This document shows positions 178 to 64,000 of a stretch of DNA of 64,000 bases, in pieces. The notes beneath the pieces are model-generated. The model worked only from the letters and a program-made list of their open reading frames with translations. It was not told where the DNA came from and did no database searches. Position 1 is the stretch's first letter. Every line of letters starts with the position of its first letter. Made by a program: the position numbers and the translations under genes. Source of the DNA: Elusimicrobiota bacterium (GTDB lineage Bacteria > Elusimicrobiota > Elusimicrobia > FEN-1173); contig JADJJR010000001.1 of NCBI GenBank assembly GCA_016706425.1, positions 491,133-555,132 of the forward strand, written 5' to 3'.

Positions 178-316
178 CGGGGGAAAGTGTGAGTTTTGAC
201 GGGAGGCAATCCATTACAACTCGTTTACAATTAATTAATGCAAATTTAACCCGAAGCCCTTAGAATACCTCCCTTGGCGTGACATTTATCGTTCGTTCCT
301 TTCCCCGGAGGTTTAA

Positions 317-3734: not shown

Positions 3735-3798
3735 TTGCCGCCAGGCAACGTACCGGTTTGTAGGACGGGATCAAAGCCGCTCCAAAACGGAGTCTTCC

Positions 3799-5091: not shown

Positions 5092-5095
5092 TCCC

Positions 5096-29718: not shown

Positions 29719-32700
29719 TTAGGCTTGGGTGAGGAGGGTCCGGAGGTTCTCGATTTCCCGGGCGATGGCCGCGGACAGCCGGGCCACACCGATGATAACA
29801 AAACCCTCGAGCGGGACGACCGCCTCGTCGTTGCGCGCGATGACGCGCGAACCCCGACCGATGGGGTTCTCGGCGCCCGCGGCGTTCCAGCGGTCAATCC
29901 AATCCACCAACGCCGTGAGCACCAACCGACCCGCGCCGTCCGCCAGGCCCGGGGCTTCGCCGGGGGTGACGAAACGGACGCGCGCGCCACGCCGCGCCGC
30001 TTCGGTCCAAAGGTCCCCCAGGGGGCCCGGTCGGTCCGCCGGCACCACCAGCGTCGTCCCCGGTTGGAGGGCGCCGACGAGGCCGGAGAGATAACGCCGG
30101 GTTCGATCCCGTTCTTCCGCTTCCCAGGAGTCAAACCCCAAGAGGTTCACGTGCAGAGTGGTTTCATTGCGCCTCTCCGCTTCCCGCGCGGCGGCGGCGC
30201 CGGTTTCCCGCAGGGCCGACCCTTCCAGGGCCGCCGCGGTCACCCGGCCGTCGAGAATCGCCCGGGCGGTGGGCGCGTCCGCCGCCAAAAGGCGGACGGT
30301 GGGGACAAATCCTTCTTCCAGTTGATCATCGGAAGCCCCGACGACGCGCCGGCGCAGGTCCTCCAGACCGGTGGCCCCCCAATAATTGTCCCCGTTCTTA
30401 AAGACGGCGGGGGGCACGTCGAAACGGACGGGCCCGGCCTCGCCCAAAAGCAAGGATCGCAACAGCGCCGCGCGCGCGGCGCTGTCGTCCGTCAGTCGGC
30501 CGGTCCCGCGCCGCAGGAAAACGACGCCTCCCAGCATGGCCAAAGCCGTGGCGGGCGTCCCCGGGGCCTCGGACACCCGTTGCGGTTTGACGTCCACCAC
30601 GATTTCCGCCCCGCTGTAGGGCACCCGGAAACGGACTTCGTACCGCCCCCCGCCCAGATTTTTCGAACTCAGATAGACAACGCCCGGGTAACGCCGCTGT
30701 TCGGCCAGGCGAACGGCCGCCCGCAGGGGGGCCGTGAGCAGGTCCACCTCCTTGGGGGAGAGGACGTGGGGAGCCGCGGTAATACTTCCATCGAGAAAAC
30801 GGTGGGCCATCCAGCGTTGTGCGTTGATTTGATTTTGGTCGTAGGCGATCCGAACCACGGACAAACCCGCGTAAAACTCCATGGCGCGGGCGGTGTCTTC
30901 AAGCGCCATGCCCTCGTCCTGGGTGGGTGTGATTTTCTTGGAGCGGAGCCGCTCGCTCCGTTCCAAATGGGACAGTTCGTGAACCAGGGCCACAAACACA
31001 TACGCCGGTTGAGCGTCCGCCCCCCCGATGTAAATAACAGAACGTCCGTTTCTTAATTCGGCCGCGGCCGCGGCCTCCGGCCCTTTCGGCGCCACGACGA
31101 TGTGGGGGCGCGTCTTTTCCAGGACGTGGCGAAAACGTCCCTTTTCGAATCTCCCCAAATGTTCGATGGTGGAGGCCAGGACGGAGGCGCTGGTGGCGTC
31201 GTTCGCGTTCCTCAGGAGGGCCGCGAGGTCGGTCCCGGCCGGAAGCGACCTGGCCAACTCCTTTTTTAAAGCCGGAGCAATTTTTTGCGTCACCAGGGCT
31301 TCGTTGAGGGACCAGGCCGGGGGGGGCGTCCCTTGGGCAACGACCAAAAGGGGAAGAACGAACAACGCCGCGGCCAGCATCAATGGAGCGACGGCGCGCG
31401 CCAACGGGCCGCCCAGCCGGGGCATGTTCTCGATAACGTTTCGTGCGGCCCGGGACCAACGACGCATCCCGGCCAACACCGCCCCCGCCGGTGGAATGGC
31501 GGGGGGGATCGTTGCCTCCGCGGTGGGGACCCGACGCGGCGCCCGGGCGATCGTCTCGCTGAGCGCCATCCGGACCGAAACGATTTGGGGAACCAGCCGG
31601 GCGCGGGTTTCAGGGCCCGCGTCCGTTCCCGCCATCTTCCAGGACAGGGCCAAACTCATTTCAAGGCCGACAGCGGCGGGCGCGCCCAGGGAGAGGGCCC
31701 GCGCCGCCGCGGAGGCGTGGGCGGCGGTGACTTTTTCACGAATCTCCTCTCGAAGCTTCGCGATCAATTCGGCGCGCGACTCCTCCGGGGAGCGGTCGGG
31801 GCGGTCGGCCAGGCCCGCCAGTTCCGCGGGTGCGAAATGCAACAACACATAGTCCGCCACGGCATCCAGACTTCCCAGATGGATGTTCTCCGAACGGAGG
31901 GATTCGCCAATTCCCCAGGCGACTTCCACCTGGGTCACCAGGGGCTCCCCGGAGGGAAACCGCAGGGTTTCCCCTCCAAAAAAAGCCTGTTCCTCCCGGG
32001 GCGATAAACCGACGCCGCGGGGGTAGCCCTCGCGGGTCCCACGCCACCACATCTTGAAGAAGAAGGGCCACGCCGCCCACGCGGGGATGTTGACCAGCAA
32101 TTTTTCGGCGGAGGGATCGTGCATGACACCCCCGGTGATTTTGTCCCTCAACAGAGCCGCGAGGCGAACGGGGAACCGATCGGGGGTGTTCGCGCCCCGC
32201 GCTTCCCCCGGAAGGCGCAGCCAACCCTCGTTGTTCAGAAAAGTCAGAGCGTAGCCCAAATCTTTTCCCAGGGGCACGCCCAGCCAACGGCGCGCGGCCA
32301 ACCGGAGTCGAATCGCCCGAACGGCCGCGCGGGGGAAAGGGATTTCAATCAACACATTTTCGCCGTCGCCGTAGGTCATGAGGGACGGCGGCACGTCGAA
32401 CAATCCCTCCTCTTGCCATTTCTCGGCCAGACGGCCGCTTTGCCCGTTCAAGGCCCGGTCCATGGAGGACAACGACCCCAGCGGGGCGGGGGTCGCGTCG
32501 GGCATGGCTTCGAGGGCCCCCAGGGTGAGGTCGGGGGCGATGGCCAAGGCCTCGCGGCCCCCGGCGGGGACGGCCGGGGGGCGGCGGTTTATCCAGCCAT
32601 ACAATGTCGCGGCAAACCGGCTCATTCGCGTGGGTTCCACGGCCGGGGACGGCCCGGCCGGATCGCCAAAGCCGGTGCGGGTGTGGGCGAAGAAGGTGGA

Positions 32701-35700
32701 CGGGTCCTCGTAACCGGCCCGGTGTTTTTCATACCGGGTTTTCAATCGGTGGGGGGTGTCGAAGAGCCAGTGAATTCCATTGCCCAAGAACGTCCCCAAT
32801 CCCAGGGCCCCTCGAATGGGGGCGCGCCATAAAGCGTTGAACGCATGGGGCAGAGCGCGCCTCGCCCAACGGGCCGCGACGACGGCCGTTAACGCCCACG
32901 GAAGGGGGGACCCAATTTGGTGTGGAGCGGGTGGGCCCGCCGGCGGGGTCGCCGGCGAGTCGCCAAAGTCCGCCACGCTTTCCCAATGGATCTGGGAATC
33001 CAAGAAGGTTGTGTCCGATGGGGGGCGGGGTTTTTGCCGCGCCCACCGCGCCACGATCGCGCCGGCCAACCCCAATCCTGTCACCGCCATCAAAATCGGG
33101 TTGGTCAGGCGGAAAGTCGCCGCTGCCAGGCCGCCTGTTTCAGAAACGGGGGCGACCGCGAGGGAGCCGACCGACGGGACCAAGGGAACCGCCGCGCCCG
33201 CCGCGGCGGTTTCAACGGCCGCCGGCGCCCCCTCGATCGCCGCGCGCAGGAAGATTTCCTGGCCGGGGAAGATCAAATTGGGATCGACCAAACCGTTTAA
33301 GCGGGCCACGTCCATCACGCGGGCGACGAGTTCCGCGTTGTTGCCCCCCTCCGCGAATTGGAGGATGCGCCACAGGGAATCGCCCTGTTCGACGAGAGCT
33401 TTCAGACCGCCTCCTTCCAACGGGATCAGAGTGGCGGCGCCGGCGACGTCAACGGGCGCCAAAAACAGGGCGGTCAGGAGGAGGGCGCCTAAAGCGACGC
33501 CCCAAAGGCTCCCTCGCCGCGTCGGCAAAGGATCGAAAACGGTGGCCTCCCGGGTCTCGGCAAAGTCCCGCCGGGCGGGGGTCAGAGTGCCGTTGGTGGA
33601 AAAATCATGGATGATGATGTCGTTGCCGTCGCGAACCACCTCAAAGTGGAGCCGGGACACCCCCCCCAACATCGCGGGGGCGAGGCCCAGGCGACGTTCC
33701 ATCACCCCCCGACCCATCACAAGGGGGCGTTGACCGTCCCCTCCCGTCGGCGCGTCGCGGCGCGCCCCGTTGGGCGCGAGGAGGAAAAGCGCTCCGTTCG
33801 TCGGATCGATGTCGAGTACGAAAGTCGGGCCGGCGACCACGGGAACCGGCAAATCCGATATGGGCAATCGCGAGACGCGGCGCTCGCTGTTTCGCAAAAG
33901 ACGGACGGTTTGGGTCGCATGGCCCCAGGCTTCAACGACCCGGGTCTCATAAAGCGTGGGGTCGGCTGTGGTTTTGAAAGCGTTCCGCAACCGGACCACC
34001 CCGGGTTTGAGGGCCTCCGGGCTCAGGGGTTCCCGGGCCAAATCGAGGAGGGCCGCGGTCAAATGGTCCTGGGCGGGGACGGTGGGGGGACGCGGGGTCT
34101 CGAGGCCGGGGTTCGCCGGGGCCCGCCGGTCCTGAAAAAGCGCGTTCGGGGAAGGCGCAAGCACGGTGGGCTCGAAGGATGGCCCCACGGGGGGCCGGGC
34201 CCCATCGGGGGAGGGCGATCCCGCGAATGGGTTCCATCGCGTTTCTTCCACGCCCTCCATCAACCAACGGAAAAAGGCGGACCCCCGCAACGCCGCGGGC
34301 AGCGGACGCGCCCCAAACCAGGTCGTGACGGGGGCCGCCAACCAGGTCACCAAGAGAAAAATCACCAAAGGGGTAAAGGAGATGTTGTACGCCCAGAAGG
34401 CGACGATCCAAGCGGTTGCGGCCAATGCGACGATGCCGGTGGATCGAAAAGCGTCCGCGAGCGTGAGCCCCCGGGAGGCCCTTTCGGCCTCGGATTGAAC
34501 TTTCCAGGTCAATCGGTTTCCAAGGATTCGAGCCGTTGCTCGGAAAGCGCGCAAGGGCCCGAAAACGATTTCCGGGAAATACATGAAGGGGGATGTCACT
34601 ATTTCCATCCCGCCGATCAAGAGGTCCCGGGCCGCGTTGGTCCCCGCCCGAGCGGCGGTTGACCGGTCGCCCGCCCACAACGCTCGAAGCGCGTCGATCG
34701 CGGAGCGGGCGGGCTGGTACAGTTTGGGCAAGAGAACCAACCCCACCCCGACGATCAAGAACGAAGCCCACATTAAAACGGGGTTGGAGTGCACGATCGG
34801 GGAGCCGGGAAAAGCCGACAGCATTGTCATGGATGTCCAGACAATGAAAAGGGGCGCTTGCACGAAAATGCGCGTGGAGTAATGGGCGATATAAAGCGCC
34901 TCAAAAGAGAAAGGAACGACCTCCTTGGACCACGACCAACTCCAGGGCGCCTTTTGCCCCGCGGTGCGGGCGGTTCCGCGAGCGAAGAGGTCGAACAGGC
35001 GCCCGAAAATCCCCGGCGATAAGTAGGCGGCGTTCAACAGGTCGCCGACGGTCCATCGAAGGGCCTGTTCTTGTCGACTGATCGGGTTGGCCGGGGTGTC
35101 CTCGTAGAACGCAACATCTCCGGTGTACGCCGGGTTGAGAAACAGAGCTTCAATCGTGTCGTGGCTGAGCAGGGCGGGGGGCAAAACCTCCCGGGGGGAG
35201 GCGGGGGTCCCGACAAATTGGTCCAAAAAGGTTTCGTTGCGGGCGAGTCCTTTGCCGTAGGCCCCTCCCCGCCCGAGAAGTTGAAACTGGGTTTCCGGGA
35301 TGCGGGACATCCACCGGTGGGTCAGGGTGCTGCGGAATTGGGTCCACGTTTCGAGGCGGGCCGGAAGAAGGCCGGGTTGAATGAACCCACGGTCCGGGTT
35401 GGCGGCGCCGATTTCAACCAAACGGCGAATTGTTCCCGGTGGCGCTCGGTTGTCGGCGTCCATTAAAATGCTGAAGACAACGGGACGGGGGTTTTCCCCG
35501 AACGAGGAGCGCCCTTCCCGCAGGCCGGCAATGTCCGCGGCCATTCGTTGGTCCAACGCGTCGATTTCGGGGTCGTTGGGGCCGGGGGGCGGTTCAATGT
35601 TGCCGCGCGCGCCGAACGTCGGTTTCTCCGCGCTGCGATCGCCCCGGTCCAAATAGTTGATCGGGCGTTCTTGGCCCCGCGTCGCCAACGCCATGAAATC

Positions 35701-38700
35701 AAGGTACTGACCGGGTTTCTTTAATACGGTCGAGGCGCGGTGGAGGTATTTGAGACCTTGGGCGGTCCGCTCGATCAGATCGAGAACGGCGGCGTCCCGC
35801 GCGCCTCCCGTCAGACCCGCGGCCTCCCAGCGGGTCTCATGGAACAACCAAAAATCGTCCCGCGGTCCGGGGACGGCCCGACCCGCGCGTCGTGCCCCGG
35901 CTTCTTCGGATAAAATCCGCCGTATCTGTTCACGCGCGTTTTCGATCGAATCCAATTCGTGGGTCACGATGCCCCGGGGCGCGGAGGCGCTGACGAGCAC
36001 GGCGATCACGTTCCCCCGGGGATCCAGATTGTCGAGGTACGACCGCGTCATATTGTCCACGGCTTCCGCCGAGCTTTCCCGGTGGGTCGACCGGAGCATG
36101 TACGTCAACGCCGTCCGGGCACCGTCGGGGACACCGTCGCTGAAATTCGAACGCCGCAACACCGCGGCGCCCTTCACGGGGAAAGCGGAACGAAGCGTGA
36201 GGAGAATCAAATCGGCCACGCCCCCGTTCAAAACGAAGGTGATGGCCAAATACAGCGCGGCGATCGGGGTCGAGGAGGCCGACCAATCGAGCGTCAGCGC
36301 GAAGAGCCCGGTCAAGGCCGTTGCGAGAACGAGGACTTCTCCCAGATAACGACGCGTCGCGGGCAATGCGGGAGCCGTCCGGCGGCCCGGCTCCATCGGT
36401 TGGTTTCGAAAATCCGCCCCCCGCCCTTCGCCGTCCCGGCCGCGCAGGCCATCCACAAAGCCCGCCCAGGCCGCCGTTAGCACGCGGGGATTCCGGGTCC
36501 GGACCGCCACCCGGAGGACTCGGAGAATGGTTAACGTTGTTTCGACCAGTCGCAACAGGGGTTTGGAAGCGAGGGGGGAATTGTAAGTGAAGATCAAAAC
36601 CATAGATCGGACAATGTAGTAAGTGCGCGCGGGAGAAAAATTGCCATAAAGGTCCCCGTCCAAACTCTGATGGACGTTGTGTAAAATTTTTTCCCGCACG
36701 GGCGCCATGGCGATTTGGTCGCCGCCTTGTCGCACACGGGAAAACCAATCGCGGTCTTCGTTGCCGAAAAAGTAGCCTGATTTAAAAAGCCCGTGTTTGG
36801 AAAAAGCCTCCAAACGGACCAGGACCGCCGCTGTGGCCACCCCATCCACAGCGGCCTTCTCCCCGGTGGGGACGCCGTTGCCCCGGTCCGAGGCCCATTG
36901 CCCGGGCCAGCGCCACACGTTGTGGTACCAGTTTCGCCACACCCGATCGGGACGGTTTTCAAAGTGGAGGGGCGGCGCCCAGGCCACCCGGTCCGGGGAA
37001 TCGGACTCCGCCGCCACGACCATATCCTCCAAGCTGGACGCCGTGAGGCGCACATCGCTGTCGACCAGGAAAACATAATCCGGTCTGTCGGCGGGCGCCC
37101 GTTCGAGGAGGCGCCTCAGTCCGACGTTGCGACCCTCCGCGGCCCCGGTGTTCCGGTCGTTGACGATCAATGTGCTCCGGGGGACTTGCGCCACGGCCCG
37201 GGCCAGGGTTTCGGCCGGCGCGTCGGTCGAGGCGTTGTCGACCACGATCAACTCCCAAGGGGTTTTCCCAGCGGGCCAGGCGGCCATTCGTTCGATGGCG
37301 CGCACCGTGTCGCCGGTGTCGTTGTGGGTCAATATCAGGATCGCCGCCCGGGGGACGGTGCCAACGGGGCGCGCGGGTCGGGGGGTGGGAGGCGTGGGTC
37401 GTCCCGCGCGGGGGAATCGAATGACGAGAAGGTTCACGGTCGCGTGCAGGCCGAGAAAAACGAGATAGGCCACTTGGGCGGGGGTCAAACCCACGACGGC
37501 CGTTCCATCGGCGGGCAGGCCCAACAGGAGACCCGCCACCGCGACGAGCCCCGCCGCCAAGGCGGCGTTGCCCTTGGCACGGCGGCGATCGCGGGTGAGG
37601 AAATCCCCGAGGTGGAGCACGGCGTAAGCGGCGAGGGACAGACGGACGAACAAATCGAAATCCCCCGGCAGGCCGACGGCCGCGCCGATCCCGGCGGCGA
37701 TGAGCCCGGCGAGACCGGCTTCCGTCGGCACCGAAAGGCCTCGGTAGCGGGCCGCGGTGACATGCAACGCCTTGGGGGTGGACGCGTTCCACAATCGCGG
37801 GAGCCAGAACATCATTCCGCCGACCGTGTTTGGTCCCGGGTCGAAGTTGTTTCGCCAGCGGGCCGCCCAGGTTTCGGCGGCGTCGTTGAACCGGGCGTGG
37901 AGGTCGTTGGTGCCGATGCGGAACGACACGCCGCCCCGCAGGGGGTCGCGGGACACCGTCACGCCGGGTTCGGCGACGGTGGTCCGTCCGGTTTGCATCA
38001 GGTGCTGGAGGGCCAAGTAAAAACGCTGAACCACGCCCGGCCCCGCCAGCGCGATGGGGCGCGAGAGGTAAACCCGCTCGCCCGAGACCAGCTTTTCGAT
38101 GGGCAGGGGGTCCTGGGCGAGGAGGTCCAGATAGGGGTTGTCGGCGGGGATCTCGCGCATCGCGGGAGCGACCACCACGTAGGACACCTGTTGGCGCCGC
38201 CAGAGGGCCATCAAACCGTCGGTGTGGAAGCCCCCCGCCACCAGCACGCCCCGGTCGGCGCCGCGGGCGGCGATGGCGTCGAGGAGGTTTTGGGACAGGG
38301 CCGCGTTCCGGCTCAAGGCCAATTCGCAGAAATCCTCAAAGGGTTTTAATTCCGCGGCCGTGAAGTCCGTCGCGTCCGCGGCCGGGTCAAGGCCCTGGTA
38401 CCGGGCGTTCAGGGCGAGGAGCCCGTCGCGCCGCGCCGTGTAATCGCGCCAGTCCGTCGGGGCCAGCGTGTGGGCGAAGGCTTTTTCCAAAAGCGCCAGG
38501 TCCCGCGCGATTCCGACCAGCGCCCGTTCCCGGGGGGTCCGGGCCAAGGCGTTTTGGACGCGATTTCGACGGACGGCGATTTCCTCCAAAAGGGCCGCGC
38601 GATCGATGGCGTCGGCCGAGGACACGTAATCGATGTAAGCGGAAAGGGGGGCGAAGGCGCGGAGGTCGACGCCGTGGGCGCGCGCCACGGACCGGAGGCG

Positions 38701-39735: not shown

Positions 39736-39857
39736 TCCTAATAGCTTAATGACCCTAGGCGAATGTCGCATTAAGTGGATGTAAATTGCTTGTAACAGTG
39801 AGCCGGCGGGGAAATCGGAAAAATTTCGTGTATGATTCCCTGGAAAGGAGGAAATCA

Positions 39858-40229
39858 ATGCTTTGGCGATTGGCGGCCGATGGGGTCGCCCTCATTCACG
39901 GTTTGTGGGTGCTGGCGGTGGTCCTGGGACCCTTTTGGGCTTTGCGGCGACCGGTGGGTCGGACCTGGGTGGTGACTCTCTTGCTCGCGACGGCTTTTTT
40001 TTGGGCGTTTTATTGCCCTCTGACCGTCCTTGAAAATTTCCTCCGTTCAAATTACGATCCCGCCGGGGTGTACACCGAGGGTTTCCTGGCCCGTTACGTG
40101 CGGCCCTGCGCCGACGCCCGCCGCTGCGGTCCCGCCCTGGCGTGGGGGGTTCGTTTGTGGGCGGGCCTGTGGGTGGTCGTGTACGCTTTTTTGTGGGGGC
40201 GGGAACGCCGCCGAGCGTTGCGGAATTAA
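39858..40229 (+). CDS. DUF2784-like small membrane protein, divergent from the giant minus-strand gene
   Basis: A strong RBS GGAAAGGAGGAAATCAATG precedes it. 123 aa from MLWRLAADGVALIHGLWVLAVVLGPFW... with 3-4 TM helices. Confidence 0.55.
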   Translation: MLWRLAADGVALIHGLWVLAVVLGPFWALRRPVGRTWVVTLLLATAFFWAFYCPLTVLENFLRSNYDPAGVYTEGFLARYVRPCADARRCGPALAWGVRLWAGLWVVVYAFLWGRERRRALRN

Positions 40230-40768
40230 TTCGCCGTTTTCGGTTGTTGGACTTTGGCCTTCCGGGGGACCCCCGCGTTCACCCGGTCCAACACCTTTTG
40301 CCGGTGGGTGGGCACAAGCCATTCGAGGATCAGCCAAATCTCCCTTTTGTCGGTGGATTGAAGCACCAGGGCGGCGTTGCTTTGGTCGGGGGCCCGGTCG
40401 TCGAAACGGACCGAGGCCACCTCCGACCAGGCCATTTTGGCCGGCCCGTTCAAGCTTTGAATCGCAAGGCCGTCCTTGGTAAAACGCCACTCGATCACCG
40501 GCCGGGCGGGTCGAGCGAATAACAATCCCACCCCGCAAAGGATGGACAGCGTCGGGGCCAAAAACCCCAGGGCGCGCGCGCTCAATCCCCAATGCAAATG
40601 ACGGACCGTCCAAGGCGCCACCCGCGCGCGGAAGAAAAACGCCAAAGGCATCAACACCAACCCGACCATGGCCAGCACCGTGAAAAACAACGGCAGGGTG
40701 GGGCTCATCCAAATCAGGGTCAAATCCGCCCCTTTTTCCATCAAAGTGTAACCGGTGGAAAGCGTCAT
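40226..40768 (-). CDS. Membrane protein with two N-terminal TM helices and a PH-like (bPH/YdbS-like) soluble domain
   Basis: 180 aa. TM segments LPLFFTVLAMVGLVLMPLAFFF and ALGFLAPTLSILCGVGLLF are followed by the beta-rich ...VIEWRFTKDGLAIQSLNG...SVRFDD.... The stop overlaps DUF2784 (TTAA). Confidence 0.45.
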   Translation of the reverse strand: MTLSTGYTLMEKGADLTLIWMSPTLPLFFTVLAMVGLVLMPLAFFFRARVAPWTVRHLHWGLSARALGFLAPTLSILCGVGLLFARPARPVIEWRFTKDGLAIQSLNGPAKMAWSEVASVRFDDRAPDQSNAALVLQSTDKREIWLILEWLVPTHRQKVLDRVNAGVPRKAKVQQPKTAN

Positions 40769-40795
40769 GGGTCTCCTATCCTAGCATAGCCGCCG

Positions 40796-42406: not shown

Positions 42407-42503
42407 GGCCTTTCAGTATAATGGATTTGGTCGCCTCGGCGAGGGGTTTTCCGGGGCCGACGCATCTGTTAAAATGCCCCATTCGCTTTTAAAGGAGCCG
42501 CGC

Positions 42504-43241: not shown

Positions 43242-43257
43242 GCCGCCGGCCGACGGC

Positions 43258-47639: not shown

Positions 47640-47777
47640 ACAAACGCGTTCTTTTTAACGGCACGCTCGCCCACACCGGCGGGAATATTGTTTACAACTT
47701 ATTTACATTTCCAAAAGGTCATCTTAAGGGCGGTTGGGTTTAATAGGGGTGTCGGGAAGGCGTCCAAGGAGGCCTTT

Positions 47778-47990
47778 ATGGGAAACACCACGATCGAAAA
47801 TACCTCTTGCAAAGAACCCCAAATCGCTTATCTTTGGATCAACGGTCCTCGACGGCGAATCCATCCGGTGGACGCCGACCTGCCCCTTCCGTTGGGGCGC
47901 GGCGTCGGCGGGAGCGGGATCTGTCGCCTTTGTGAAAAATTATTGACACCTTTTTATGCGGACAAACGAGACAAAAACCAAGTCCATTAA
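47778..47990 (+). CDS. Speculative small ORF (70 aa) with a strong Shine-Dalgarno, immediately upstream of and overlapping the start of the giant plus-strand gene
   Basis: AGGAGG lies 6 nt before the ATG. The product is MGNTTIENTSCKEPQIAYLWINGPRRRIHPVDADLPLPLGRGVGGSGICRLCEKLLTPFYADKRDKNQVH. It lies in a lower-GC intergenic region, has no homolog recognised and could be non-coding. Confidence 0.2.
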   Translation: MGNTTIENTSCKEPQIAYLWINGPRRRIHPVDADLPLPLGRGVGGSGICRLCEKLLTPFYADKRDKNQVH

Positions 47991-53900: not shown

Positions 53901-56900
53901 GTTGTTGGCCCGGGTGTCGTACAACGAGGAAGGCCATTTACGAATAACGCGGGAGGATCTGGATCTGCTGGGCCGGCCGCTCGAGAAATTGAGCCTGGCG
54001 TCCCGGAGCGCGGCCGGTAAAGGCACGCGCTACGCGCGGGAAGATTTCGATGAGACGGGCCAAAAAATCATCCTCGACATCGCCAAGGGTGTTTACACCG
54101 TGCCGGTCGAAGAAGGCTCGCCCCGGGGGATCCTGGAGATCGTTTTGGCCCAGGCGCGGGCCCGCAACCTCGAGACCGGGGCGGGTTTCGAGGTGGATGT
54201 CCACACCAGCCATTTGACCGACCAACAAATCCGCTTAGAGCTCATCCGGCTCGGCTACGAGCCCAATTTCATGGAACGCTTCATGCCCGGATTTGTTCTC
54301 GAAAACCTGCCGGAATGGTTGTACACGCCCGGACTGTACACGCACCCCGCCGAAGGCTCCGCGCCGGTGAAAGTGCTTCGGGTGCGGGAAGCCCATCTCT
54401 TGGACGCGCGGTCCGGCGACTTTTACAAACACAGCGTGCCGGACCTCGATCTGTTGGAGGTGATGTGGCCCGACGCCCACGACACATCCTTCATCGACTT
54501 CATCGTCAGCGGACGGGCTTACGAGGTGTTCAAGCAAGGCAAACGTTTTCAGTTCATCGCCAACATCGACAACTTGGCGGCGGTCCCCTCCCCGGCGTTG
54601 CTCGCGGTGATGCGCCTGACCGGCGCCCCGCTCATCAACGAAGTCGCCCAAAAGCCGAAAGGCGCCAAGGGCGGTTCGGCCATCAAGTTTAGAGCGGGGC
54701 GGGTCCCGGGACCGGTCAATTTCGGCCAGCGGCGGGGTTTGGCCGAAGAGTTCCAGTTCGACGCGGCCTTCTTAAAGGGGTTGTCCCCCGATGAGGCTTC
54801 GGCCTATTTCCCGATGTTCAATACGGCCAACTACGTGGTCGACATCGCGCAATTCTCACGACGGTTCTTCAACGCCCCGGACGCCACGGAATCGGATGTC
54901 GAAGGGATGCTCAAGCGGTTTTACGACGCGCGCAACGACCCGGAGGAACTGCTGGCGATGCGGTTTGATTTGATCAACGATTACCGCCGCCAGACCCAGT
55001 TGTGGGAAAAAGACAAAACCCACCCCGCCCTCCAACCGGCGAGCTTGGCGGGCATGGTGACCTGGCGGGTTCCGACGCTCTTTGTGGAGGTGCCGGCGGG
55101 CGTGGCCGGGGGCTCGGATTCGCGTTTCGAACCCTTAAAAGAGAACATCGATAATTTCACCGCGAACCTCGCCCTGGTGGAACGTTTGGCGGGGGCCGGG
55201 CTTTCCGCCGGGACCCCGGTCGAGACCCTGCGCCCCGACGGCCTCTCCCCGGCCGACGCCGCCCGGTGGAAAAGTCTGGTGACGAAATTCAAAGGCAAGA
55301 CGTTGACGCAGGCGCAAGCGGATTTGGCGTCCAACGTCCGCTCGATTCGGGATTCCTTGGCCCGGGTCGCCGGCAAGCAAGCGCGGGACTACGCGGTCGG
55401 GCCCCCTCCCGCGGCGCCAAAGCCCCGGGCTCCCCCGATCGAACCGATCATCCCGGATTTGGGGGCCGTGAGCGCGGACATCGACCCTCTCGGCAAACTG
55501 AACCAGAGCATTCACAGCCTGAAGAGCATCGGGGACGTGGTTCTTCCCTCCGATCACCCGCTTTACGACCGGGGCGTTCCCCGGGACTTCGAAGTCCACC
55601 TGATCGGCGGCAAGGGCAATTTTCAATATGTGTTCAACGGTCCCTTCGGCCGCGTCCGCGCCCACGCCAGCGGTTTGACGTCCAAGAACAGCGACGATCC
55701 CCGGAAAATCCTTTACGTCGCCCAGGCTTATTTTGATGAGAACTTCGTCCAAGTCCCGGACCGCGTGGCCGCCGATCTGATCCGGGAGACGGACCGGTTT
55801 GATAAGTGGTGGCAAGCGACCCACCCTCCGTTGGAAGGCGCCGGTGATTTCGTCGGCTGGCTGGGGGCCTGGGCGCGAAAATTGCTCACCAACGTCGATT
55901 CCGGTCTCGAAGGCGGCGTCCAGGTGGCGCGTCCACAAGACGCGGCCATCCACGGGGAGGTCGTGCACATTTCCTACGAGGGCCCCTTTTGGGGGGCGGG
56001 GGGGGTGCAGGACGTCGTCACGGAACTGTTGCCGGAATTATCGCGGCAAGGGGTCAAAACCCGTCTTTTCGTTCCTCTTCATCAATTGGGTGTTTCGCGG
56101 GAGGTTCGTGACCTCTTCTTGAGCCGGGGGGTGGAGGGGGTGTCCCAATTCCCCTTGACCCGGGGCAAACACACCCACACCGCCCTGCGGGTAACGACGG
56201 TGGTTGTGGACGGAAAAACTTTTGGCGTTTACGAAACGGAATTCGAGGGCGTGACCGTGAATTTCATCGCCCACCCCGAAATGTTCTCGAATGGCTACGA
56301 GGGCCAGGAAGCCTTTTGGTCGAACGTCCCCGCGGACGTGCGCGAGCGGGTGGCGAACGGGGAAGCGGTGGAATCCTTCCGGTGGGCCTACGCCGGGAAA
56401 GAATACGACGCCCGCCTTCTTCGAACGGCCACGGTGGACGGTCGGGGGTCCTTTGTGTACCGGACCAACTACGGCGGGAAGGAAATCGATTTCGCCGGAT
56501 CCGTCGAGATGTTCCGGGCGCAGCGCACCACACGGGACCTTTATTGGGAAGCCACGTTGTTCTCGGCGGTTTCCGTCCGAGCGATGGAGGCCTTGAATCT
56601 GAAGCCCAGCGTCGTCCAGGCCCACGATTGGCAAGCCGCACAGGCCCTGGCGTACGTTCGAGGACACGCCCCGACCCGGGCGATTCCCGGGCGACGGGCG
56701 TTCCGGGTGGCGGTCAGTGACCGGTACGGGCACGAGCTTTTGACGGAACTGGGCAGCGGGGAGCTGGTCGGGGTTTTCCGCGAAGACGAAGAGGGCCTTT
56801 TGGGCATCACCAACGGGATCAGCCACAAAGGTTGGGACCCCGCCCAGCCCAAGCCCCGTCGGCAACAGCCGGCCCCGGAGGAGAACAAGCCGGTCTTGCT

Positions 56901-59900
56901 CGATTACGACTACGCCCCCTTCAGCGCGGAGAGCCCCGGCGGGAAGGTCAAGAACAAAACACAATTTCAGGAGGCGTCCGGGTTGACGGTGGATCCCACC
57001 GCCCCCCTGTTCGCGAGCGCGTTTCGCATCACCGGTCAAAAAGGCATCGAGGAAATCCTCGGCGCCGCGGCGCGGATCCTCGACAGCGGTGGGCAGATCG
57101 CCATTCAAGGGGTCGCCCACCCCGAAGAGGAGAAGCAGTACAAATACGTCGCGCGGCTGAAGGAATTGCAGAACCGGTTCCCCGGGAAGATGGTGTTCCG
57201 CGAGACCTTCGATAAAGACGCCGTCCCCTATTTGCTCGCGGCCGCGGATTTCTCCCTTTGGCCCTCGGAGTTCGAGCCCTGCGGGGTGGCCCACCAACAA
57301 GCCATGCGCTACGGGGCGGTGCCCATCGGTCGACGCGTTGGCGGTCTGGACACGACGATCATCGATGAGCGGGAGTACCCGGGGCACGGGACGGGATTCA
57401 AATTTAATTTAAAAACGGCGGATTCCCTTTGGTCCGCGGTGGAGCACGCTCTGGCCGTTTACCAAACCGACCCCGCCGCTTACGGGGATATTCAAAAGCG
57501 GGCCATGGTCGGCCCCCGGGATTGGTCGGAGGTCGCGCCGGAATATCTTGACGCCTACACGGCCCTGGACCGGGGCGAAATCCGCGAGACGGACGGGTTG
57601 GGGGACGCCGCCTTGATCACCGTGATTCACAACGCGGGCGCCGGTTACCAAGGGCGTTTGCCGCCGGGCGAGGCCGCGGGCCGGTTCGCCTGGGCCAAAA
57701 GTTTGACCGGGGGGTTCCCCCCGGGATTGAATTTCGACCCGCAGGGCGGGGAGTTTTATGGGTACTTGAACGCGTTGAAAATCGGCCTGGTCGCGCAGAA
57801 CCACCAGCGCCCGGTGCAGTCCGACGCGCTCATCGGCCACCTGCCCGTCGGGGTGGACTTGGCCGCCATCCCCCTTCAACGGGCGGCCGAGGTCCGGTCT
57901 GTCTATTCGGCCTTGGAGGGTTGGTTGGCGACCAAACTGGCCGGCCCCCCGCCCGCCACGGGAAAACAGAACCGGGCGGACACCGTCTGGAACAAGGCGG
58001 CCCTGTTGCGGGACGAGGTCGCCGGGCTGCTTCAAAACACCGATGTGGGCGTCTTCGACGCCGATGGAATTCAACGCCATTCCCAGGCCCGTGTTTTGGG
58101 GTATGGGTTCTCTCAGGATCCGACGGGCGGCGCCCGCGGTCGGTTGGGCCTGAGCGATGAGTTCTTTGAAAGAAACTCCGTCTTGCACCCCCACCTTTTG
58201 GAAGCCGCTTTTCACGAAGCGTACCACGTTCTTTTTGGTCTCGACGCCAAAACCACCCATCACCGCGACGCCCTGCGTCTGCAAGCCGTGCTTTTCTGGG
58301 GGCTTTCGGTCGAGGAGGCCTTCGCCCTTTCTTTAGACCAACTCGAAAACCACCCCAAAAACGCCCTGGGCCGCGCCCTCCGCATTCGCCGGCTCATGCG
58401 GGATTTCCGGGGCGAAGACATTTACGCCCTCCGCGCGCTCCTGCGCGAAAAAATGGTCCAGGGGCGGTTGATCGAGTTTTTGTCCGAAGCCGACGACGCC
58501 CTGTTCGCACCGCTCGCCCTGTCGCCCACCTCCCTGGAACGGCGCGTCCAGGAGCGGATTGATTTGATGCGCCGGGTGGAGGGGGAGGCCCCCCGTTCCC
58601 CTGGACAGGACGACCCCCGTTACGCCGAAGCCCGGCGCACCGAAGAGGATTGGGCCAAGCCCCTCATGGATACGGGCCCCGTGGAGGCGATCCATCCTGT
58701 TTTGAAAGCCATCGCGCTTTTGGACGATGTTGAGGAAACCCAATTGCTGGACGCCCTGGGCGCCGCGGTTGTCAAAGACGCGAAACTCGCGGATCGCCCC
58801 CTGGTGGACAGCGTTTTGTTGATGACCGGCCGCGTCCCCGCCAAATGGGCGAAGTTGCACGGCATCGCTTACCAACGCGTCTACCACCTATCGGCCGAAG
58901 GTCGGAAAGTGTGGGCCGGGGGCCTGGGTCCGGTGCAGGTGTTTCACAGCGACGCGGAGCGCGAAATCACCCGGGATTCTTCGGTCGATATTGCCGACAT
59001 CGAGCCCGATTACACCCATCGGCGCACGGCGGAGGGGTTGGTGCCCGCGGACGGCGTGGCCCCTTCGACCCCGCTCCTGCCCTCCGACGAACCGGTTTTT
59101 GATCTGGAAGTGGTGTTCGAGGACCGTCCGGTGAAAATCCGGGTGCGGCCCATGAAAGGCCCCGAGGGCAACCCGGTGTACCTCTTCCGCGACAACCCGG
59201 ACGGAGAGGCGTTTTTCACGAAACAACTCTACGATTACCGCGGCGGGGGGGACAACCCCGCCAGTTGGGAGGATTTCACCGCTTTTTTCAGCGTCGCCTC
59301 CTTGGCCATCATCGCGCATTTGGAAGAGGCCCGGCTCCGCGTGTTGGGGGCGGCCTGGCGTCCCCCGGTCATCCACGGCAACGACGCCCAGACGGCCATG
59401 GTCAACGTGCTGGTGTCCGAAGCCGTGGCGGGCGGCAACCCGCGGGCCGAGGCCCTGGCGAAAAAAATCCCATTTTTTAAACCCTTGGCCCGGTGGATCG
59501 CGCCCAGTTTTAAAACCCACACCTACGGCAACCGGCAGGGTTACACCTGGGGCCGCCCCACGGATCATTTCGGACTCCTCTCGTTTTTGAGCGGCATTCC
59601 GGCTTGGGACCACAATCGATTGATGGGTTATTTCGCGCGCAGGGGTCCCGAACAGAACGGGTACCCCGACGTCACCTCGGCGGGTATCGCCGCGACCCCC
59701 GGCCACGTGCAGGGTGTGGCCCGCAAGCACGCCTGGGACGTGGCCCGGAAATACGACGATCCCCATCGGGTGGTCGGTATCACCAACGGCGCCAATTTGG
59801 AATGGTCGGCCGGCTTGTTTCGCCGTCTATTGAAACAGGTGGGGGGAGAGAGCGTCGACCAGAACCGGCCCACCGCCGCCCAGGTGAAGGACGCCAAACG

Positions 59901-62900
59901 GTTCGCCAAACAGGAATTTTTCACGGAGCTTTTGGCCGTCAACGACCAAGGCCAACCCAAACATTTGGAATCGGAAGTCTTCAACCGGTTCCAGGATGTC
60001 CTGCGGGACCGCACCACCGGCACCCCCGCGCGGGTGGACCCCGCGATTTTGGCCCAGCCGACCGTCGGTTTTGTCGGTCGTTTGGTGGTTGAAAAGTTCA
60101 ACATGGGCCGGGCCTGGGCGCGTTTTGTGATCCGCGCGTTGGTTCGCGCGGGGGTCAACGTGGTTCTTTTCGCGCCGATTCAGCAAAAAAGCGACCCCTC
60201 GAGCCCCAGCTCGACCATCGCTCTCGCGCTCACGCAATTGGCCGCCAACCTTGACCGCGAATGGAAACCGGGGCACGGTCGCCTTTTGTTTATCGATTCC
60301 CGGGATTCGGAATTGAAAAAGAAGGCGTTGACCTCGCTCGATATCCTCGTTTTGGATTCCGACAAAGACACCGAAGCGAACGGCTACACCGAAGTGGCGG
60401 CCTCCGCGTCGGGCGCTTTGGTGATGGCCCCGCCGTTCCACAACGGCGAGGGGCTGATCCGCGGGCAGGGGATTCCCATCGACTGGTCGGCGCCGGGGCA
60501 CGGCAACACCATTTTGCCCGAAAATCAAAAATCCGAAGCCTACTTGCAATCCCTGCTCCAGGCGACGGAAGTGTATTTTGATCGACCCGACGATTTTGCC
60601 GCCCATCAGGCCACCTCGGTGCGTTTGAGTCGGCCCCTGGAAGCCCGGTTGACGGCGGCGGCCTCCCTGCGCGATTTCAACTTGAGCTACCAACTGCCGG
60701 TGGATGTTCGCAGCGACGGGCGGTGGCGGACGGGCGTTGTGGCCCCCGCGGGCGTCCCGGTCAAGATCGACGCCGTCGTGCGGCTCCGACCGGGAGTGGA
60801 CACACGCCACGTGGAGACCCGCGTTCGCCTGGCCCCGGTGCGGGCCTGGGGCATGGACTGGGGCGCGGTCCAGGAAATAACCCTCCAGCCCACGAATTGG
60901 GTGGTGACGGGCGAACTCGGGTCCCAAAACGTCACCTACGCCGTGGAAGTGGAATTGGCGCCCGGGCAATATGAATTTATCGTGGAAACCCGCGACCGAC
61001 GCGAACGGGAATGGCTGGTGCAGGAGGGGATTTCCTGGGGACAAAACAATCGTTTGACGATCGGGGCGCCCTCGGACCCCGCGGGGCTTCTGCCCTTCTG
61101 GCGTCCCGTGATTCAACAGCTCCGCTTCCTGGGGTGGTCGGATCGGCGGATCGGCGCGGGTCTGGGTTTCCTGGAGGAAGTGCTCCTGATGGGGGGCGTT
61201 TCCTTGATCGCCGGGGCGATGGGGGGCCTGTTCGGCCTGGGGGCGACGGCGGGTTTCTTGTCCGCCTCCGCGGCCGCGGCGGTCCTCTTCCCGTTGGGGC
61301 ACGTCGGCCGTATTTTCTATTACGATTATTCCGGACGGTTGAAGACGCGGCAAACGTCCGCGCGCGAGCTTGTCCGTCTTTTGACGGTGGGCGGGCTGTT
61401 GCGCGCGATCCACGCCGGGCTCTTTTTCGCTTTGCCGTGGGTGTTGACTCTCCTGGCCGGGGCGCCGTTGGCGGGTCCGCCGAGCGGGGTGGTGATCTGG
61501 GCCGCTCAAATCCTTCCTTTCCTGGTTGTTCCCGCTCTCCACGCGCGTTACGATTTCCGCCCCCCGGCCGGCTGGCCGCTCGCCGTTTTCGACCCCCTCG
61601 CCCCTGTAAAAAAATTGGTCCCTGTTCTTCGAGCCATTCGATTCATCCCGACGACAGGCGCGCCGGTAGACGGCGGCGCCTACAACGCGAACCCCCAACG
61701 CACGCGAATTTTGGACAAGGCCTTCGCCCGCTTGGTCAAAGCCGATCCGGCGGCTTTGGCCCAGGTGAACATGACCGCCTTGCGCGCCATCGCCGAATTG
61801 GTCCTCGAAAACACGGAACAACACGGGACACCGGGGGCGGAGGCCTCCCTCGGGCTCCGAATCCAGGATGGCCTAATCCGACTGGAAATATTTAACGAAT
61901 CGGCCGAAGCGCTTCCGACGGCGTTGAACGGGGAATTTTCGGTGGAGCGCCCGAACGGCGCCGTTCCTGAAGCCGAACGGGGCGTCGGCACGCGCTGGGG
62001 ACAAGGCGTGTCAAAAATCCCCACGCTCGCCGGGGTTCTTTACCGCGACGCGGAATCGGACCTTTCTTCAAAAATTCGTTGGTCTTGGCGGCGGGACCCG
62101 TCGGACGGAAAAATTGCCTTTGTCTTCACGGCCCCCGTCCCCGCCGCTCGACCCCAACGGCCGTCCCCCACCGAGTTCGCGACCGAATGGCAGATGTCCG
62201 GTCCCGCGTGGCGACAGGCCAAAACCGCCGCCCGGTCCGTGGTCTTGGTTCTGTTCCTTTCACTGGCCGGTTGGGGCCTGCCGGTGGAATCACCCCGGGC
62301 CCAACCCCCCATCGCCGCGCCCGCGGCGAGCGCAGACCACTACATTGACGCCGAGGCGTACCAGGCCTTCCTGCTCCAGCGCCCCGCCACGCCGGCGATC
62401 CCGCGGGAATACGCCCGGGCGATTTTGTTGGGTCTTTTGCAGGACCTGATCCCGAATCTTCTGGATAAATCAACGCCCGAGAGCTCCACGCCCTCGATCG
62501 AAGAATCCCTTTATTTCTATTCCAACGCCCGGCAGGCCATCGAGGCCATCTTGGATTCCCCGGCCCTCTTGAAGAACATCCAAGCGCCCGAAATCGTGGA
62601 CGCGCTGAAAGCGTTGCGCGCGGATCTTTACGACGAATTCGTTAATAAAGAGGTGGGAGCTCCGGACATCGTTTACTGGAAGAAACGCTTCGCGGCGGTG
62701 CGCGGTCTCCTCGAATTGAGCGCCCCGTTGGTCCGGGAGTTCCTGCGACGGCAACCGGCCGTTCCATCCACCGCCGGCACACGATTGGGGTCTTTGTCGC
62801 CCCTTCGGTCGGAGCGGGAAACCTTGCTGGCCATGGTCGGGGTGCTTGCGGCGGCTCCGCGACCGCGGCGGCGCAGCCTCTGGGAGAAAGCGGGGGCGAT

Positions 62901-64000
62901 AGACGAGGATCGGCCGGCCGAATGGTTGGGTTGGGAAGTGCGGTCCATTCAGTTGCCGGACGGGCAGACCCTGCGCGTGGCCCTGCGGCCGGGCAACCCG
63001 GCGGTCCCCGGCGTGGTTTACATATACGGAGGGGGGGAAGCGGCGTTCAACCCCGCCTTGGATTTTGGCGAAGCCACCGTCGTGATCATCGAGCGGCGCA
63101 CCGAGGTGAAAGCCCAAGAACTGATTCTGAAAGCCGCCGCGGATATTCGTCTGGTCCTTCCCCGACTCGAAAGCCAGAACATCCATTTCCCGCAGGGATT
63201 TTTCCTGGTGGGCCACTCCTTGGGGGGGCACATCGCGGCGGAACTGGCCACCGCGTCGCCGACGGCCTTCGCCCGGAAAATCCGCGGGATTGCCACCATC
63301 AATTGGGCGGTGCCGCAGCCGGCTTTCATCGGGCAAATGAACGCGGTGATCGGGTGGATGAATCAGTCGGTGCGGGTCTTCTCGCTGTTCACTTTCTGGC
63401 CTTTCGTGCCCGCCCAATGGGCGAAGTTCCGTGAAACCGCCATCAAAAATCTCGACCGTTTGATTGTTCCCCTCACGGCGCACGCCTATCAAATCGTGAC
63501 AGGCCGTACCCTGGTGTTCGACAAACACTTCGCGCCCCTCAGCCAGGCCGCGGCGGAATCGGAAGCTCTGCAGCACTATTTGCGGGACCGATTTTCTCAA
63601 ACTTGGGCAACTTTTGAACGGGAAAACACCCTCCCCATCCTCCTCATTCGGAACACAAACGATCCCTTGACCTACGGATTGGCGGCCCGCGTTCGCGACC
63701 TCCACGTTTCCGATGAATTCTCCGACCAACGTCCGGTCCGTTGGGCGGTCAATTTGATGACGGGCGACCACCCGGCGGAGTGGCACAGTCCTCACATGGA
63801 CGCGAGCCAAGTGGCGCTGGTGGCGGACGCCCTAAAGCAGTTTATGAAGCACGCGACGGCGCCGGCGGGGGAAAACGTGCTCGACTTCCCGCCCGCGGTG
63901 GCCCGCGCTCCCCGCGTTGAATTTCGCCAATGGGGCCTCTTGGGTTCCCTGGGTTTTGCGGTGGGGCTCGCGACCCTGTCGATGGTCTATTTGGCCGGTG
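47956..64000 (+). CDS. Giant multidomain protein, 5' part (at least 5348 codons open to the window end, so not in the ORF track). Order: signal-like N-terminus, conserved N-terminal module, HDIG, GHKL kinase-like x2, UGPase-like, glycogen-synthase-like GT-B, alpha-glucan-phosphorylase-like GT-B, beta-rich domain, TM cluster, GHKL #3, GxSxG alpha/beta-hydrolase, TM helix
   Basis: Frame 1 has no stop from the ATG at 47956 to nt 64000. The previous frame-1 stop is at 47944-47946. The N-terminus is [42 protein letters not shown]. I spot-translated multiple segments (listed in the domain entries) and all are in frame 1. Confidence 0.8.
   Translation, partial: [5348 protein letters not shown]
48250..49600 (+). 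other. Conserved N-terminal module paralogous to the minus-strand giant protein
   Basis: ...[26 protein letters not shown]...VVGLEGAVG...APRSP...[18 protein letters not shown]...GRYFAFL...[15 protein letters not shown]...[10 protein letters not shown]...[23 protein letters not shown]...[13 protein letters not shown]...FAVVAP. Confidence 0.6.
50250..50720 (+). other. HDIG-type HD phosphohydrolase domain
   Basis: [40 protein letters not shown] (HD at 50374-50379) with downstream conserved His/Asp (..[10 protein letters not shown].., ..[10 protein letters not shown]..). Confidence 0.6.
51230..51650 (+). other. GHKL/HATPase_c-like domain 1 (RsbW/SpoIIAB-type Ser kinase fold)
   Basis: The N-box-like motif is [42 protein letters not shown]. 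A G-rich segment lies downstream ([11 protein letters not shown]). Confidence 0.5.
52000..52450 (+). other. GHKL/HATPase_c-like domain 2
   Basis: [37 protein letters not shown]...[15 protein letters not shown]. Confidence 0.5.
53980..55000 (+). other. UDP-glucose pyrophosphorylase (UDPGP/UGPase family)-like nucleotidyltransferase domain with a divergent G-loop
   Basis: [16 protein letters not shown] corresponds to UGPase [30 protein letters not shown] corresponds to [36 protein letters not shown]...[15 protein letters not shown] corresponds to YIFVSNIDNLGATVDL...EVTNKTRADVKGGTL. Confidence 0.6.
55960..57600 (+). other. Glycogen/starch-synthase-like GT-B (GT5-like) domain
   Basis: The N-terminal motif is [40 protein letters not shown] (compare GlgA EvAPfaKtGGLgDVvgaLPkaL). 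The C-terminal half reads ...[37 protein letters not shown]... then ...[37 protein letters not shown]. Confidence 0.7.
58870..60520 (+). other. Second GT-B domain resembling the alpha-glucan phosphorylase (GT35/GlgP-like) and glycogen-synthase family
   Basis: [30 protein letters not shown] (compare aYFSmEfgl...YsGGLGvLAGD), ...[14 protein letters not shown]..., ...[20 protein letters not shown]... and the C-terminal Rossmann half [15 protein letters not shown]...VVLFAPI... Confidence 0.5.
61740..61960 (+). other. GHKL/HATPase_c-like domain 3 (clearest anti-sigma-factor-kinase-like N-box)
   Basis: [46 protein letters not shown] polytopic TM cluster precedes it (about 61130-61560). Confidence 0.55.
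62950..63800 (+). other. Alpha/beta-hydrolase (lipase/esterase-type) domain
   Basis: The nucleophile elbow is [16 protein letters not shown] (GHSLGG at about 63211-63228). It is preceded by [12 protein letters not shown] (an oxyanion-region-like motif). Downstream Asp/His candidates are ...NTNDPLT... and ...GDHPAEWH. Confidence 0.55.

Follow-up and report, generated by a model that had tools for sequence, protein, structure and literature searches.

Results

Two divergent giant open reading frames (ORFs), genes A and B, lie 8 kb apart in the window, a 64,000-nucleotide (nt) stretch of contig JADJJR010000001.1 from an Elusimicrobiota bacterium (assembly GCA_016706425.1, positions 491,133 to 555,132). 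The original prediction had read them as possibly one phosphorylation-controlled machine for glucan synthesis and remodelling, with an FHA domain in a GT2/OpgH giant (A), three RsbW-type GHKL domains and an HDIG phosphohydrolase in a UGPase/GlgA giant (B), and an N-terminal module common to both. Both ORFs were found (Table 1), and so were the common module, the sugar enzymes and the three GHKL domains of B; the FHA, HDIG and GT2/OpgH assignments held in part. The start of A is likely the ATG at 39735, to which the 3338-amino-acid (aa) annotation of eight sibling assemblies maps. Residues of A are counted here from TTG 39858, and those of B follow the ORF numbering from 47947. Six sibling assemblies (L151, L152, L155, and L158-160) give B a full length of 9577 aa. 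The locus was found in 10 public assemblies, nine of which match the window at 99.8-100% identity (metagenome-assembled genomes [MAGs] of uncultured Elusimicrobia from NCBI, and JGI and Logan contigs). More diverged comparisons were provided by an A ortholog (L081) and a B ortholog (L161) from a sister species, and by a B ortholog from a third lineage (L001).

A shared head and upstream element mark a giant-protein family

The N-terminal modules of A and B are 39% identical (blastp, E = 7e-81). Scanning of a genome collection yielded at least 473 loci of this module confirmed by tblastn, in MAGs of Elusimicrobia and Omnitrophota, some of the hosts being labelled Planctomycetia. Several MAGs contained eight to nine copies, with up to approximately nine per genome. 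Because the module occurs at so many loci in Elusimicrobia and Omnitrophota it is not specific to the pair, and it is no private link between A and B. Beyond this head, no fetched locus resembled A or B over more than approximately 340 aa (L069), except L001, which matches B over aa 1-3728 and is a true B ortholog. Sibling genes of the family carry PPDK, or PMI together with PGM/PMM, and NTP_transferase was found in one.

The motifs HxQDxH, LEGA and GGFH are invariant in the module, and its HxQDxH, Glu, Arg and GGFH are in keeping with the Tiki superfamily, to which ChaN belongs. The Pfam family PF04187 (Cofac_haem_bdg, ChaN family) matched 21 of 41 members weakly (E≤1, best 4e-6), all below the gathering score; for the module of B the score was 17.5 bits (gathering score 27.7). 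A profile of the module found no sequence relative in the PDB. From its motifs and these weak matches the module looks like a domain of the Tiki/ChaN superfamily.

A search for common upstream words revealed a composite direct repeat, (T)TTACAA-N4-(T/G)TTACA, upstream of both A and B. TTACA-N6-TTACA occurs three times in the window versus 0.00 expected, the third site preceding a surface-protein gene (Table 1). The 700-nt regions that precede the head (52.8 kb) contain 34 sites, found in 33 of 75 family loci, versus 10 sites in the other 2.41 M strand-bases, an approximately 155-fold enrichment. These sites, at approximately 9470-9670 in loci L002-L080, are all in Elusimicrobia MAGs. The consensus continues with cTTCTTAAGg, a second TCTTAAG(g), and a TAnAAT-like box, and the element is also conserved ahead of the B genes of L001 and L161 and the A gene of L081. 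Its layout, 7-nt direct repeats with a 4-nt spacer, is like that of OmpR/PhoB-type response-regulator sites. The element suggests that A and B are likely co-regulated, along with many others among the giant and surface-protein genes. Such co-regulation would be family-wide and not pair-specific.

The GT2 block of gene A is a strain-variable cassette

The GT2 domain of A (aa 840-983, Pfam, 1e-14) lies in a 3.3-kb cassette. Transmembrane helices are also part of it, as is a second, weak GT2-like region that bears a QxxRW-like motif. Nine of the 10 assemblies of the species contain this cassette. In GCA_016706945.1, 203 bp stand in its place, and upstream of the junction this assembly otherwise agrees at 99.7% identity. 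The sister-species ortholog L081 is also free of the cassette, and cleanly so: RFPRxGRPxPP is joined directly to SPNAxFxDRRAP. Because the cassette is absent from one strain and from L081, the GT2 block behind the predicted "glucan" identity of A is a variable insertion in a conserved backbone, the order of which is head, transmembrane helices, FHA-like domain, transmembrane helix, and LysM. The GT2 half of the predicted label was retained. The "OpgH" half was not supported, with sub-threshold scores both for Glyco_trans_2_3 (E = 0.005, below gathering score) and for the MdoH family model (E = 0.073, 10.8 bits versus a cutoff of 1037).

A probable divergent FHA domain and a LysM domain in the backbone of A

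The Pfam FHA model (PF00498) reached 17.2 bits on A against a gathering score of 20.7, and covered 27 residues (profile positions 17-45 of 67). The sequence reads PLVMGRG...GGVSRLHFEVVRDGNDIIIHDFSTNGT. It contains the signature G2049-R2050, S2068-x-x-H2071, and S-T-N2089-G2090-T; in FHA domains, Gly-Arg, Ser-x-x-His and Asn-Gly serve for phosphothreonine contact and for structure. The signature is conserved as FGRE...YSQNHF...DLSTNGT in L081, which shares 44% identity with A here. A regular expression of the signature, composed after the sequence of A had been seen, matched only A and A orthologs in a six-frame translation of 3.2 M residues, and 2 of 20000 shuffles of A. When a profile of the two sequences was searched against the PDB, all eight weak matches (E = 0.1-1.5) were FHA domains, including Rv0020c. 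The AlphaFold2 model of the region, built from two sequences, was unreliable (predicted local distance difference test score [pLDDT] 43.7, predicted template modelling score [pTM] 0.33), with the C-terminal third unstructured. Approximately 26 residues separate the NGT from the next transmembrane helix, and the usual GDxIxxG strand is absent. Thus although the model scores fell short, the contact residues predicted for this domain are present and conserved, and the region is probably a divergent FHA domain, as judged from its sequence.

The signature, the transmembrane helix that follows it, and the LysM domain are all kept in L081. Because a single transmembrane helix parts the FHA-like domain from LysM, the FHA-like domain would lie on the cytoplasmic side if LysM faces peptidoglycan. 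An alignment scan of metagenomes for the FHA-LysM region returned only generic LysM proteins, the peptide patterns chosen being those of LysM, and the longer matches (L089, L144, L149, and L119) had no FHA domain on inspection. A word-indexed homolog search was swamped by Ala-rich words and gave 1, 2 and 0 matches for the N-terminal module, the FHA-LysM region, and the GHKL region, respectively.

The enzyme cargo of gene B

Pfam identified UDPGP, Glyco_transf_5 and GT1 domains in B, in agreement with the predicted UGPase/GlgA content. The GlgA-like unit scored above the gathering score for both PF08323 (83 bits) and PF00534 (33 bits); against TIGR02095 it reached 224.7 bits (1.9e-66), under the equivalog cutoff of 328. 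In a 6912-aa fragment of B from another assembly (L157), the Pfam matches on record are GT5, GT1 and UDPGP only. The HDIG assignment held less well. The Pfam HD model (PF01966) matched aa 776-867 with 20.7 bits versus a gathering score of 22, the motif is HDMGK and not HDIGK, and NCBIfam gave only weak Cas3-HD matches. The H...HD...D metal-ligand residues are, on the other side, identical in L001 (71% identity over the region), and their conservation points to a probable HD domain.

After its N-terminal hydrophobic segment B has no transmembrane helix for approximately 4350 aa (aa 40-4400), a stretch that holds the enzymes dependent on nucleoside diphosphate (NDP) sugars; the same localisation paradox is posed by the giant proteins of Omnitrophota. 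Past the position that corresponds to the window end, the L161 ortholog of B runs into a CofD-like domain (L161 17995-19827), and in L001 a CofD domain belongs to a gene of its own, which encodes 2667 aa and precedes the B ortholog. The two placements suggest fission or fusion of cargo.

Three GHKL-fold modules with a variant G1 box

Three segments of B (g1, g2, and g3) have in common the motifs xxNxxQHG, phi-x-phi-x-phi-N-x-S/T-x-x-LP, and RG....G.G, as read from the sequence. None of them had a match to the HATPase_c-family Pfam models PF13581 and PF02518, even at E≤1. A profile of the three segments nevertheless matched SpoIIAB (E approximately 8e-4), the conserved Asn falling on the Asp of the G1 box. 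AlphaFold2 modelling of g2 from a 10-sequence alignment yielded a Bergerat fold (pLDDT 78.6, pTM 0.76), and the top 50 Foldseek matches of this model were histidine-kinase catalytic domains, ChpT, DivL, and SpoIIAB. The model and the profile match establish the predicted GHKL fold, to which Pfam is blind, and the modules may fairly be called an "RsbW-like, stand-alone catalytic domain".

An exhaustive profile search of 1.84 billion proteins gave 14 matches at E≤1e-3. These included the glucan-enzyme giants P0004 (GT5 and GT1) and P0006 (GH77, HAD and GNAT), P0013 with a true HATPase_c domain (3e-26), and five small stand-alone proteins with the same motifs (P0009, P0010, P0011, P0014 [L083], and P0015). 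The five are 137-216 aa long, come from unrelated metagenome contigs, and show the variant N..QHG / LN(D/P)S..PLP / ER...G.G. Three of them start with a signal-peptide-like segment (by eye), which would be odd for an ATP-dependent kinase. Pfam scans (E≤0.001) found no FHA domain in the other module-bearing giants. Pfam sees little or nothing of this module class, an undescribed GHKL subfamily.

Whether the GHKL segments are degenerate bears directly on the predicted kinase activity, and the outcome was mixed. The N-box Asn followed by (Q)HG is invariant in all copies of the three lineages and in the stand-alone relatives. The canonical G1 box DxGxG is missing in every copy and is replaced by N-x-S/T, or by N-x-R in some relatives, so that Ser, Thr or Arg occupies the Gly position after the Asn that aligns with the G1 Asp of SpoIIAB. 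Because the same variant is common to the window, L161 (a 76-82% identical ortholog) and L001 (65-71% identical), the change is conserved and does not represent decay. Asn at the G1 position is also found in the solved histidine-kinase catalytic domains of CusS (7zp0, VENPGTPI) and 8dx0 (TNRGKTI), both of which retain the Gly. CusS is an active kinase. Since these domains have Asn there, Asn at G1 is by itself no bar to ATP binding, and the Asp-to-Asn exchange does not prove that the ATP site is dead. In G2, the G-x-G is seen in all three window copies, is lost in g3 of L161 (GRA), and is shifted in g2 of L001. The least conserved part of B is g1, with 42% identity to L001 versus approximately 81% for the enzyme domains. 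On balance, we lean against catalytic competence of the modules.

Three orthologs were combined into a profile of B aa 880-1800, which had no match in the PDB, and no hidden STAS-like partner was detectable by sequence. No Hanks kinase, PP2C or STAS domain was found among the window genes, in the 5348 aa of B visible in the window (Pfam), or in any fetched locus. A check for the Thr-containing linkers expected of phosphorylation targets turned up no Thr/Ser-rich linker in A or B; the one Thr-rich stretch seen lies within the GlgA domain.

Conservation and surroundings of the gene pair

Both genes are present in 10/10 assemblies of the species. In the sister species the A ortholog L081 is flanked by bPH and DUF2784 upstream and by photolyase, M48, MauE and DsbA downstream, and the B ortholog L161 has SpoIID and QueA upstream, in each case as in the window. 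L081 and L161 are separate contigs from sister samples, and the join between the contigs was not seen. In the third lineage the B ortholog L001 has other neighbours, including the CofD-bearing giant upstream, and there is no A within 10 kb upstream. Assembly GCA_016721625.1 has a B ortholog whose neighbours differ. The pair is thus kept together within the species and its flanks are kept in the sister species, but the more distant lineage has B without a nearby upstream A.

The interval between A and B contains, on both strands, DUF2784, bPH-like, Omp85/POTRA, yebC, ruvC, ruvA, ruvB, SpoIID-like and queA genes. The remaining window genes belong to transport, methionine synthesis, pseudopilins, and repair, and no sigma factor was found among the window genes. 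Directly 5' of B, a strong AAGGAGG ribosome-binding site serves a conserved ORF of 70 aa that has no known domain; this ORF is 70-81% identical in three lineages (including L001 and L161). Both giants start with a signal-peptide-like segment (AHA/AE and YA/QE; B aa 1-40, A aa 42-72; read by eye). HExxH zincin-like motifs were seen in regions free of annotation: HEMEH at B aa ~1762 (window ~53230), HEAYH at B aa ~3423 (~58213), and HELSH at A aa ~2960 (~30978). HEMEH is kept in L161 and L001. Going by the motif, peptidases that process the giant proteins may reside here, as has been proposed for the Omnitrophota giants.

Table 1. Positions of the features of genes A and B and of the repeat elements in the window.
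Feature	Position	Strand	Residues (aa)	Remarks
Giant gene A	29719..39735	-	3338	from ATG 39735; longest ORF from TTG 39858, 3379 aa
N-terminal family module of A	38062..39582	-	93-599	blastp vs B
Strain-variable cassette, 3.3 kb	34117..37412	-	~816-1914	part missing from L081 ortholog, aa ~830-1895
FHA-like domain (probable)	33514..33825	-	~2012-2115	core GR...SxxH...STNGT, aa 2049-2091 (33586-33714)
Transmembrane helix between FHA-like domain and LysM	33418..33516	-		hydropathy 2.16
LysM domain	33250..33393	-	2156-2203	Pfam LysM 22.6 bits vs gathering score 20.9
Giant gene B	47956..64000	+	5348 inside window	ATG 47956; continues off the window end
N-terminal family module of B	48193..49677	+	83-577	blastp vs A
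HD-superfamily phosphohydrolase-like domain (probable)	50272..50661	+	776-905	motif AAAHDMGKF
GHKL module g1	51229..51732	+	1095-1262	N-box IQNILQHG; G1 position EASNGS; G2 NDGEGT
GHKL module g2	52012..52455	+	1356-1503	LDNIAQHG; TVSNRTS; GHGIGA
UDPGP-family NDP-sugar pyrophosphorylase match, partial	54460..54687	+	2172-2247	PF01704, 28.8 bits
GlgA-like glycogen/starch synthase, GT5 and GT1	55960..57456	+	2672-3170	Pfam
Second GT5-like stretch	59137-59424	+	~3731-3826	
GHKL module g3	61735..62181	+	4597-4745	LENTEQHG; EIFNESA; RWGQGV; between transmembrane clusters
Alpha/beta-hydrolase-like domain	63139..63804	+	~5065-5286	Abhydrolase_6 8e-5, below gathering score
Conserved 70-aa ORF	47778..47990	+	70	5' of B, overlapping B start codon; called in L151, L159, L161, L001
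Direct repeat TTACAA-N4-ATTTACA	39779..39795	-		44-60 nt upstream of A ATG
Direct repeat, same element	47691..47707	+		~250-265 nt upstream of B ATG, ~70 nt upstream of 70-aa ORF
Direct repeat, third window site	214-230	+		5' of 1062-aa CARDB/Big_7/fn3 surface-protein gene, 317-3505

Discussion

We favour, with moderate confidence, the explanation that A and B are paralogs within a lineage-specific family of giant proteins, probably co-regulated as a family, and that they are not a dedicated kinase/reader pair. The parts list of the original prediction was largely right, and the two genes do have the same upstream element. The specific link between them dissolves because the N-terminal module and the promoter are family-wide, housekeeping genes intervene between the two divergent genes, the GT2 block is a cassette, DxGxG is absent from the GHKL modules, no STAS, PP2C or Hanks kinase accompanies them, and the L001 B ortholog has different neighbours without a nearby A. 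The proposed two-protein phospho-relay is consequently neither supported nor refuted: the arguments made for it are properties of the whole family and lend it no specific support. The refuting conditions set in the original prediction did not apply, as the variant GHKL motifs are conserved in three lineages and not randomly degenerate, the genes co-occur with conserved flanks in the sister species, and the upstream element is common to both.

The data show the domains, the family, the promoter element, the cassette and the synteny; the topology, a cis role of the GHKL modules and phosphothreonine binding by the FHA-like domain are inferred. According to the favoured explanation, the family consists of multi-copy, very large, envelope-associated mosaic proteins of Elusimicrobia with relatives in Omnitrophota. 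Its marks are a signal-peptide-like N-terminus, a Tiki/ChaN-like head of approximately 500 aa and, in Elusimicrobia, the common upstream element, with a sugar-metabolism cargo that varies from member to member. The cargo of B would form an alpha-glucan synthesis line, comprising an NDP-sugar pyrophosphorylase-like enzyme, two GlgA-like GT5 units, an HD domain, a hydrolase and, further downstream, CofD. The GHKL modules would most likely act in cis, as nucleotide- or partner-binding regulatory modules of the glucan enzymes. The backbone of A would be a membrane protein tethered outside the cell membrane to peptidoglycan, with an FHA-like docking domain in the cytoplasm and the strain-variable GT2 cassette inserted into it. 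The FHA-like domain may bind phosphothreonine deposited by a kinase encoded elsewhere, or may serve a phospho-independent interaction.

Several observations weigh against this explanation. The Tiki/ChaN assignment of the head is below threshold, and the topology was derived from a crude hydropathy scan and from N-termini read by eye. A cleaved signal peptide would put the 4350 aa of B outside the cytoplasm, which is hard to reconcile with NDP-sugar enzymes. The last ~4200 aa of B lie beyond the window and were visible in part through L161. Finally, a shared promoter and a neighbourhood kept in two species would also be expected of a functional A-B pair.

If the GHKL modules of B were active RsbW-type Ser/Thr kinases, and the FHA domain of A read phosphothreonine on B, on A itself or on a third protein, the two giants could form one machine for glucan synthesis and remodelling. 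The invariant N-box Asn and HG, the presence of a G1 Asn in CusS and 8dx0, the conserved phosphothreonine-contact residues, the upstream element common to both genes and the flanking synteny in the sister species are all in line with such a machine. We consider it unlikely, given that the G1 Gly is missing in all copies and G2 has decayed in g3 of L161, that g1 is far less conserved than the enzymes, and that Pfam revealed no STAS-type substrate or PP2C among the window proteins. The signal-peptide-like starts of three of the five stand-alone relatives argue against an ATP-dependent role of the module family, Pfam found no FHA in other module-bearing giants at E≤0.001, and the head and promoter point to the family and not to the pair. 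Moreover, the partners of FHA domains are classically Hanks-type kinases, and no paper in the literature searched combined "FHA domain" with "partner-switching". A bolder form, in which the N-x-S/T modules are a new class of active kinases that phosphorylate Thr of the giants, while the FHA, transmembrane and LysM segments of A dock and tether the glucan factory to peptidoglycan within one TTACA regulon, would be decidedly improbable.

The signalling-type domains may alternatively be relics or structural parts, the GHKL modules being pseudokinase-like protein-binding modules and the FHA-like segment a truncated, phospho-independent interaction module, for which the FHA folds of the YscD/EscD type in type III secretion are a model. 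The failure of Pfam to match any GHKL module, the missing DxGxG, and the degenerate catalytic domains of ChpT and DivL among the Foldseek matches fit this possibility, as do the sub-threshold score of the FHA-like domain and its short C-terminal part, which lacks the usual GDxIxxG strand and is left unstructured by AlphaFold2. Because the contact residues for Mg-ATP (N-box Asn) and for phosphothreonine (Arg, Ser, and Asn) are invariant between diverged orthologs, we argue for retained ligand binding, and we are doubtful of the relic explanation while giving it real weight. An origin of the giant genes or their domain combinations as assembly artefacts or chimeras might be suspected from the many frameshifts in related Nanopore MAGs and from the one assembly without the cassette. 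It was rejected as highly improbable: the locus is near-identical in nine independent assemblies (≥99.8% identity over 17.8 kb; NCBI, JGI, and Logan), the frames are intact with coding-type G+C content at third codon positions, and the architecture is kept in the orthologs of other species.

Were the A-B coupling true, a GHKL kinase and an FHA reader would control polysaccharide synthesis, which would be without precedent. Our data support something more modest, a multi-copy family of giant mosaic proteins in Elusimicrobia, of which B bears an undescribed GHKL subfamily. The regulon motif, the head domain, and the cassette-type exchange of domains provide handles on the function of giant proteins.

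Compared with RsbW/SpoIIAB (HATPase_c_2), the modules of B differ in that they have no Pfam match and carry N-x-S/T in place of DxGxG. They have no STAS partner, sigma factor or PP2C nearby, and three copies sit inside one glucan-enzyme giant. FHA membrane proteins of Hanks-kinase pathways are exemplified by mycobacterial FhaA/FipA. Like these, A has the GR, SxxH and NG core, and the FHA-like domain would be placed on the cytoplasmic side of an envelope-linked membrane protein. Unlike in these, the domain of A is sub-threshold, has an atypical C-terminal third, and is fused via one transmembrane helix to LysM in a protein of 3.3 kaa, with no Hanks kinase or PP2C in the 64-kb window. The N-terminal module resembles the Tiki/ChaN/TraB/EreA superfamily in having HxQDxH, Glu, Arg and GGFH at its two ends, and differs from it by a large helical insertion, the lack of a PDB sequence match, and PF04187 scores below gathering.

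A close parallel is provided by the "Archaeovorins", giant mosaic proteins of Omnitrophota. In the paper describing them, the class is set at ≥30 kaa, with a set of GT, methyltransferase, GH, peptidase and NUDIX domains, and PPDK_N and HATPase_c are among the frequent domains (West-Roberts et al. 2023, bioRxiv 10.1101/2023.11.21.568195). By comparison, A (3338 aa) and B (9577 aa) differ in size, in their Elusimicrobia host, and in a visible cargo of GT type only; furthermore, no SecA-like or C39/S8 domains were seen in A or B. The passages of two papers that were examined make no mention of a common Tiki/ChaN-like head or a TTACA-repeat element. A and B are like the Archaeovorins in their very long ORFs, signal-peptide-like start, many transmembrane helices and an N-terminal region without an identified domain, and also in their cargo of glycosyltransferases and central sugar metabolism, with cytoplasmic-type enzymes predicted outside the cell. 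The N-terminal module of A and B is itself found in MAGs of Omnitrophota.

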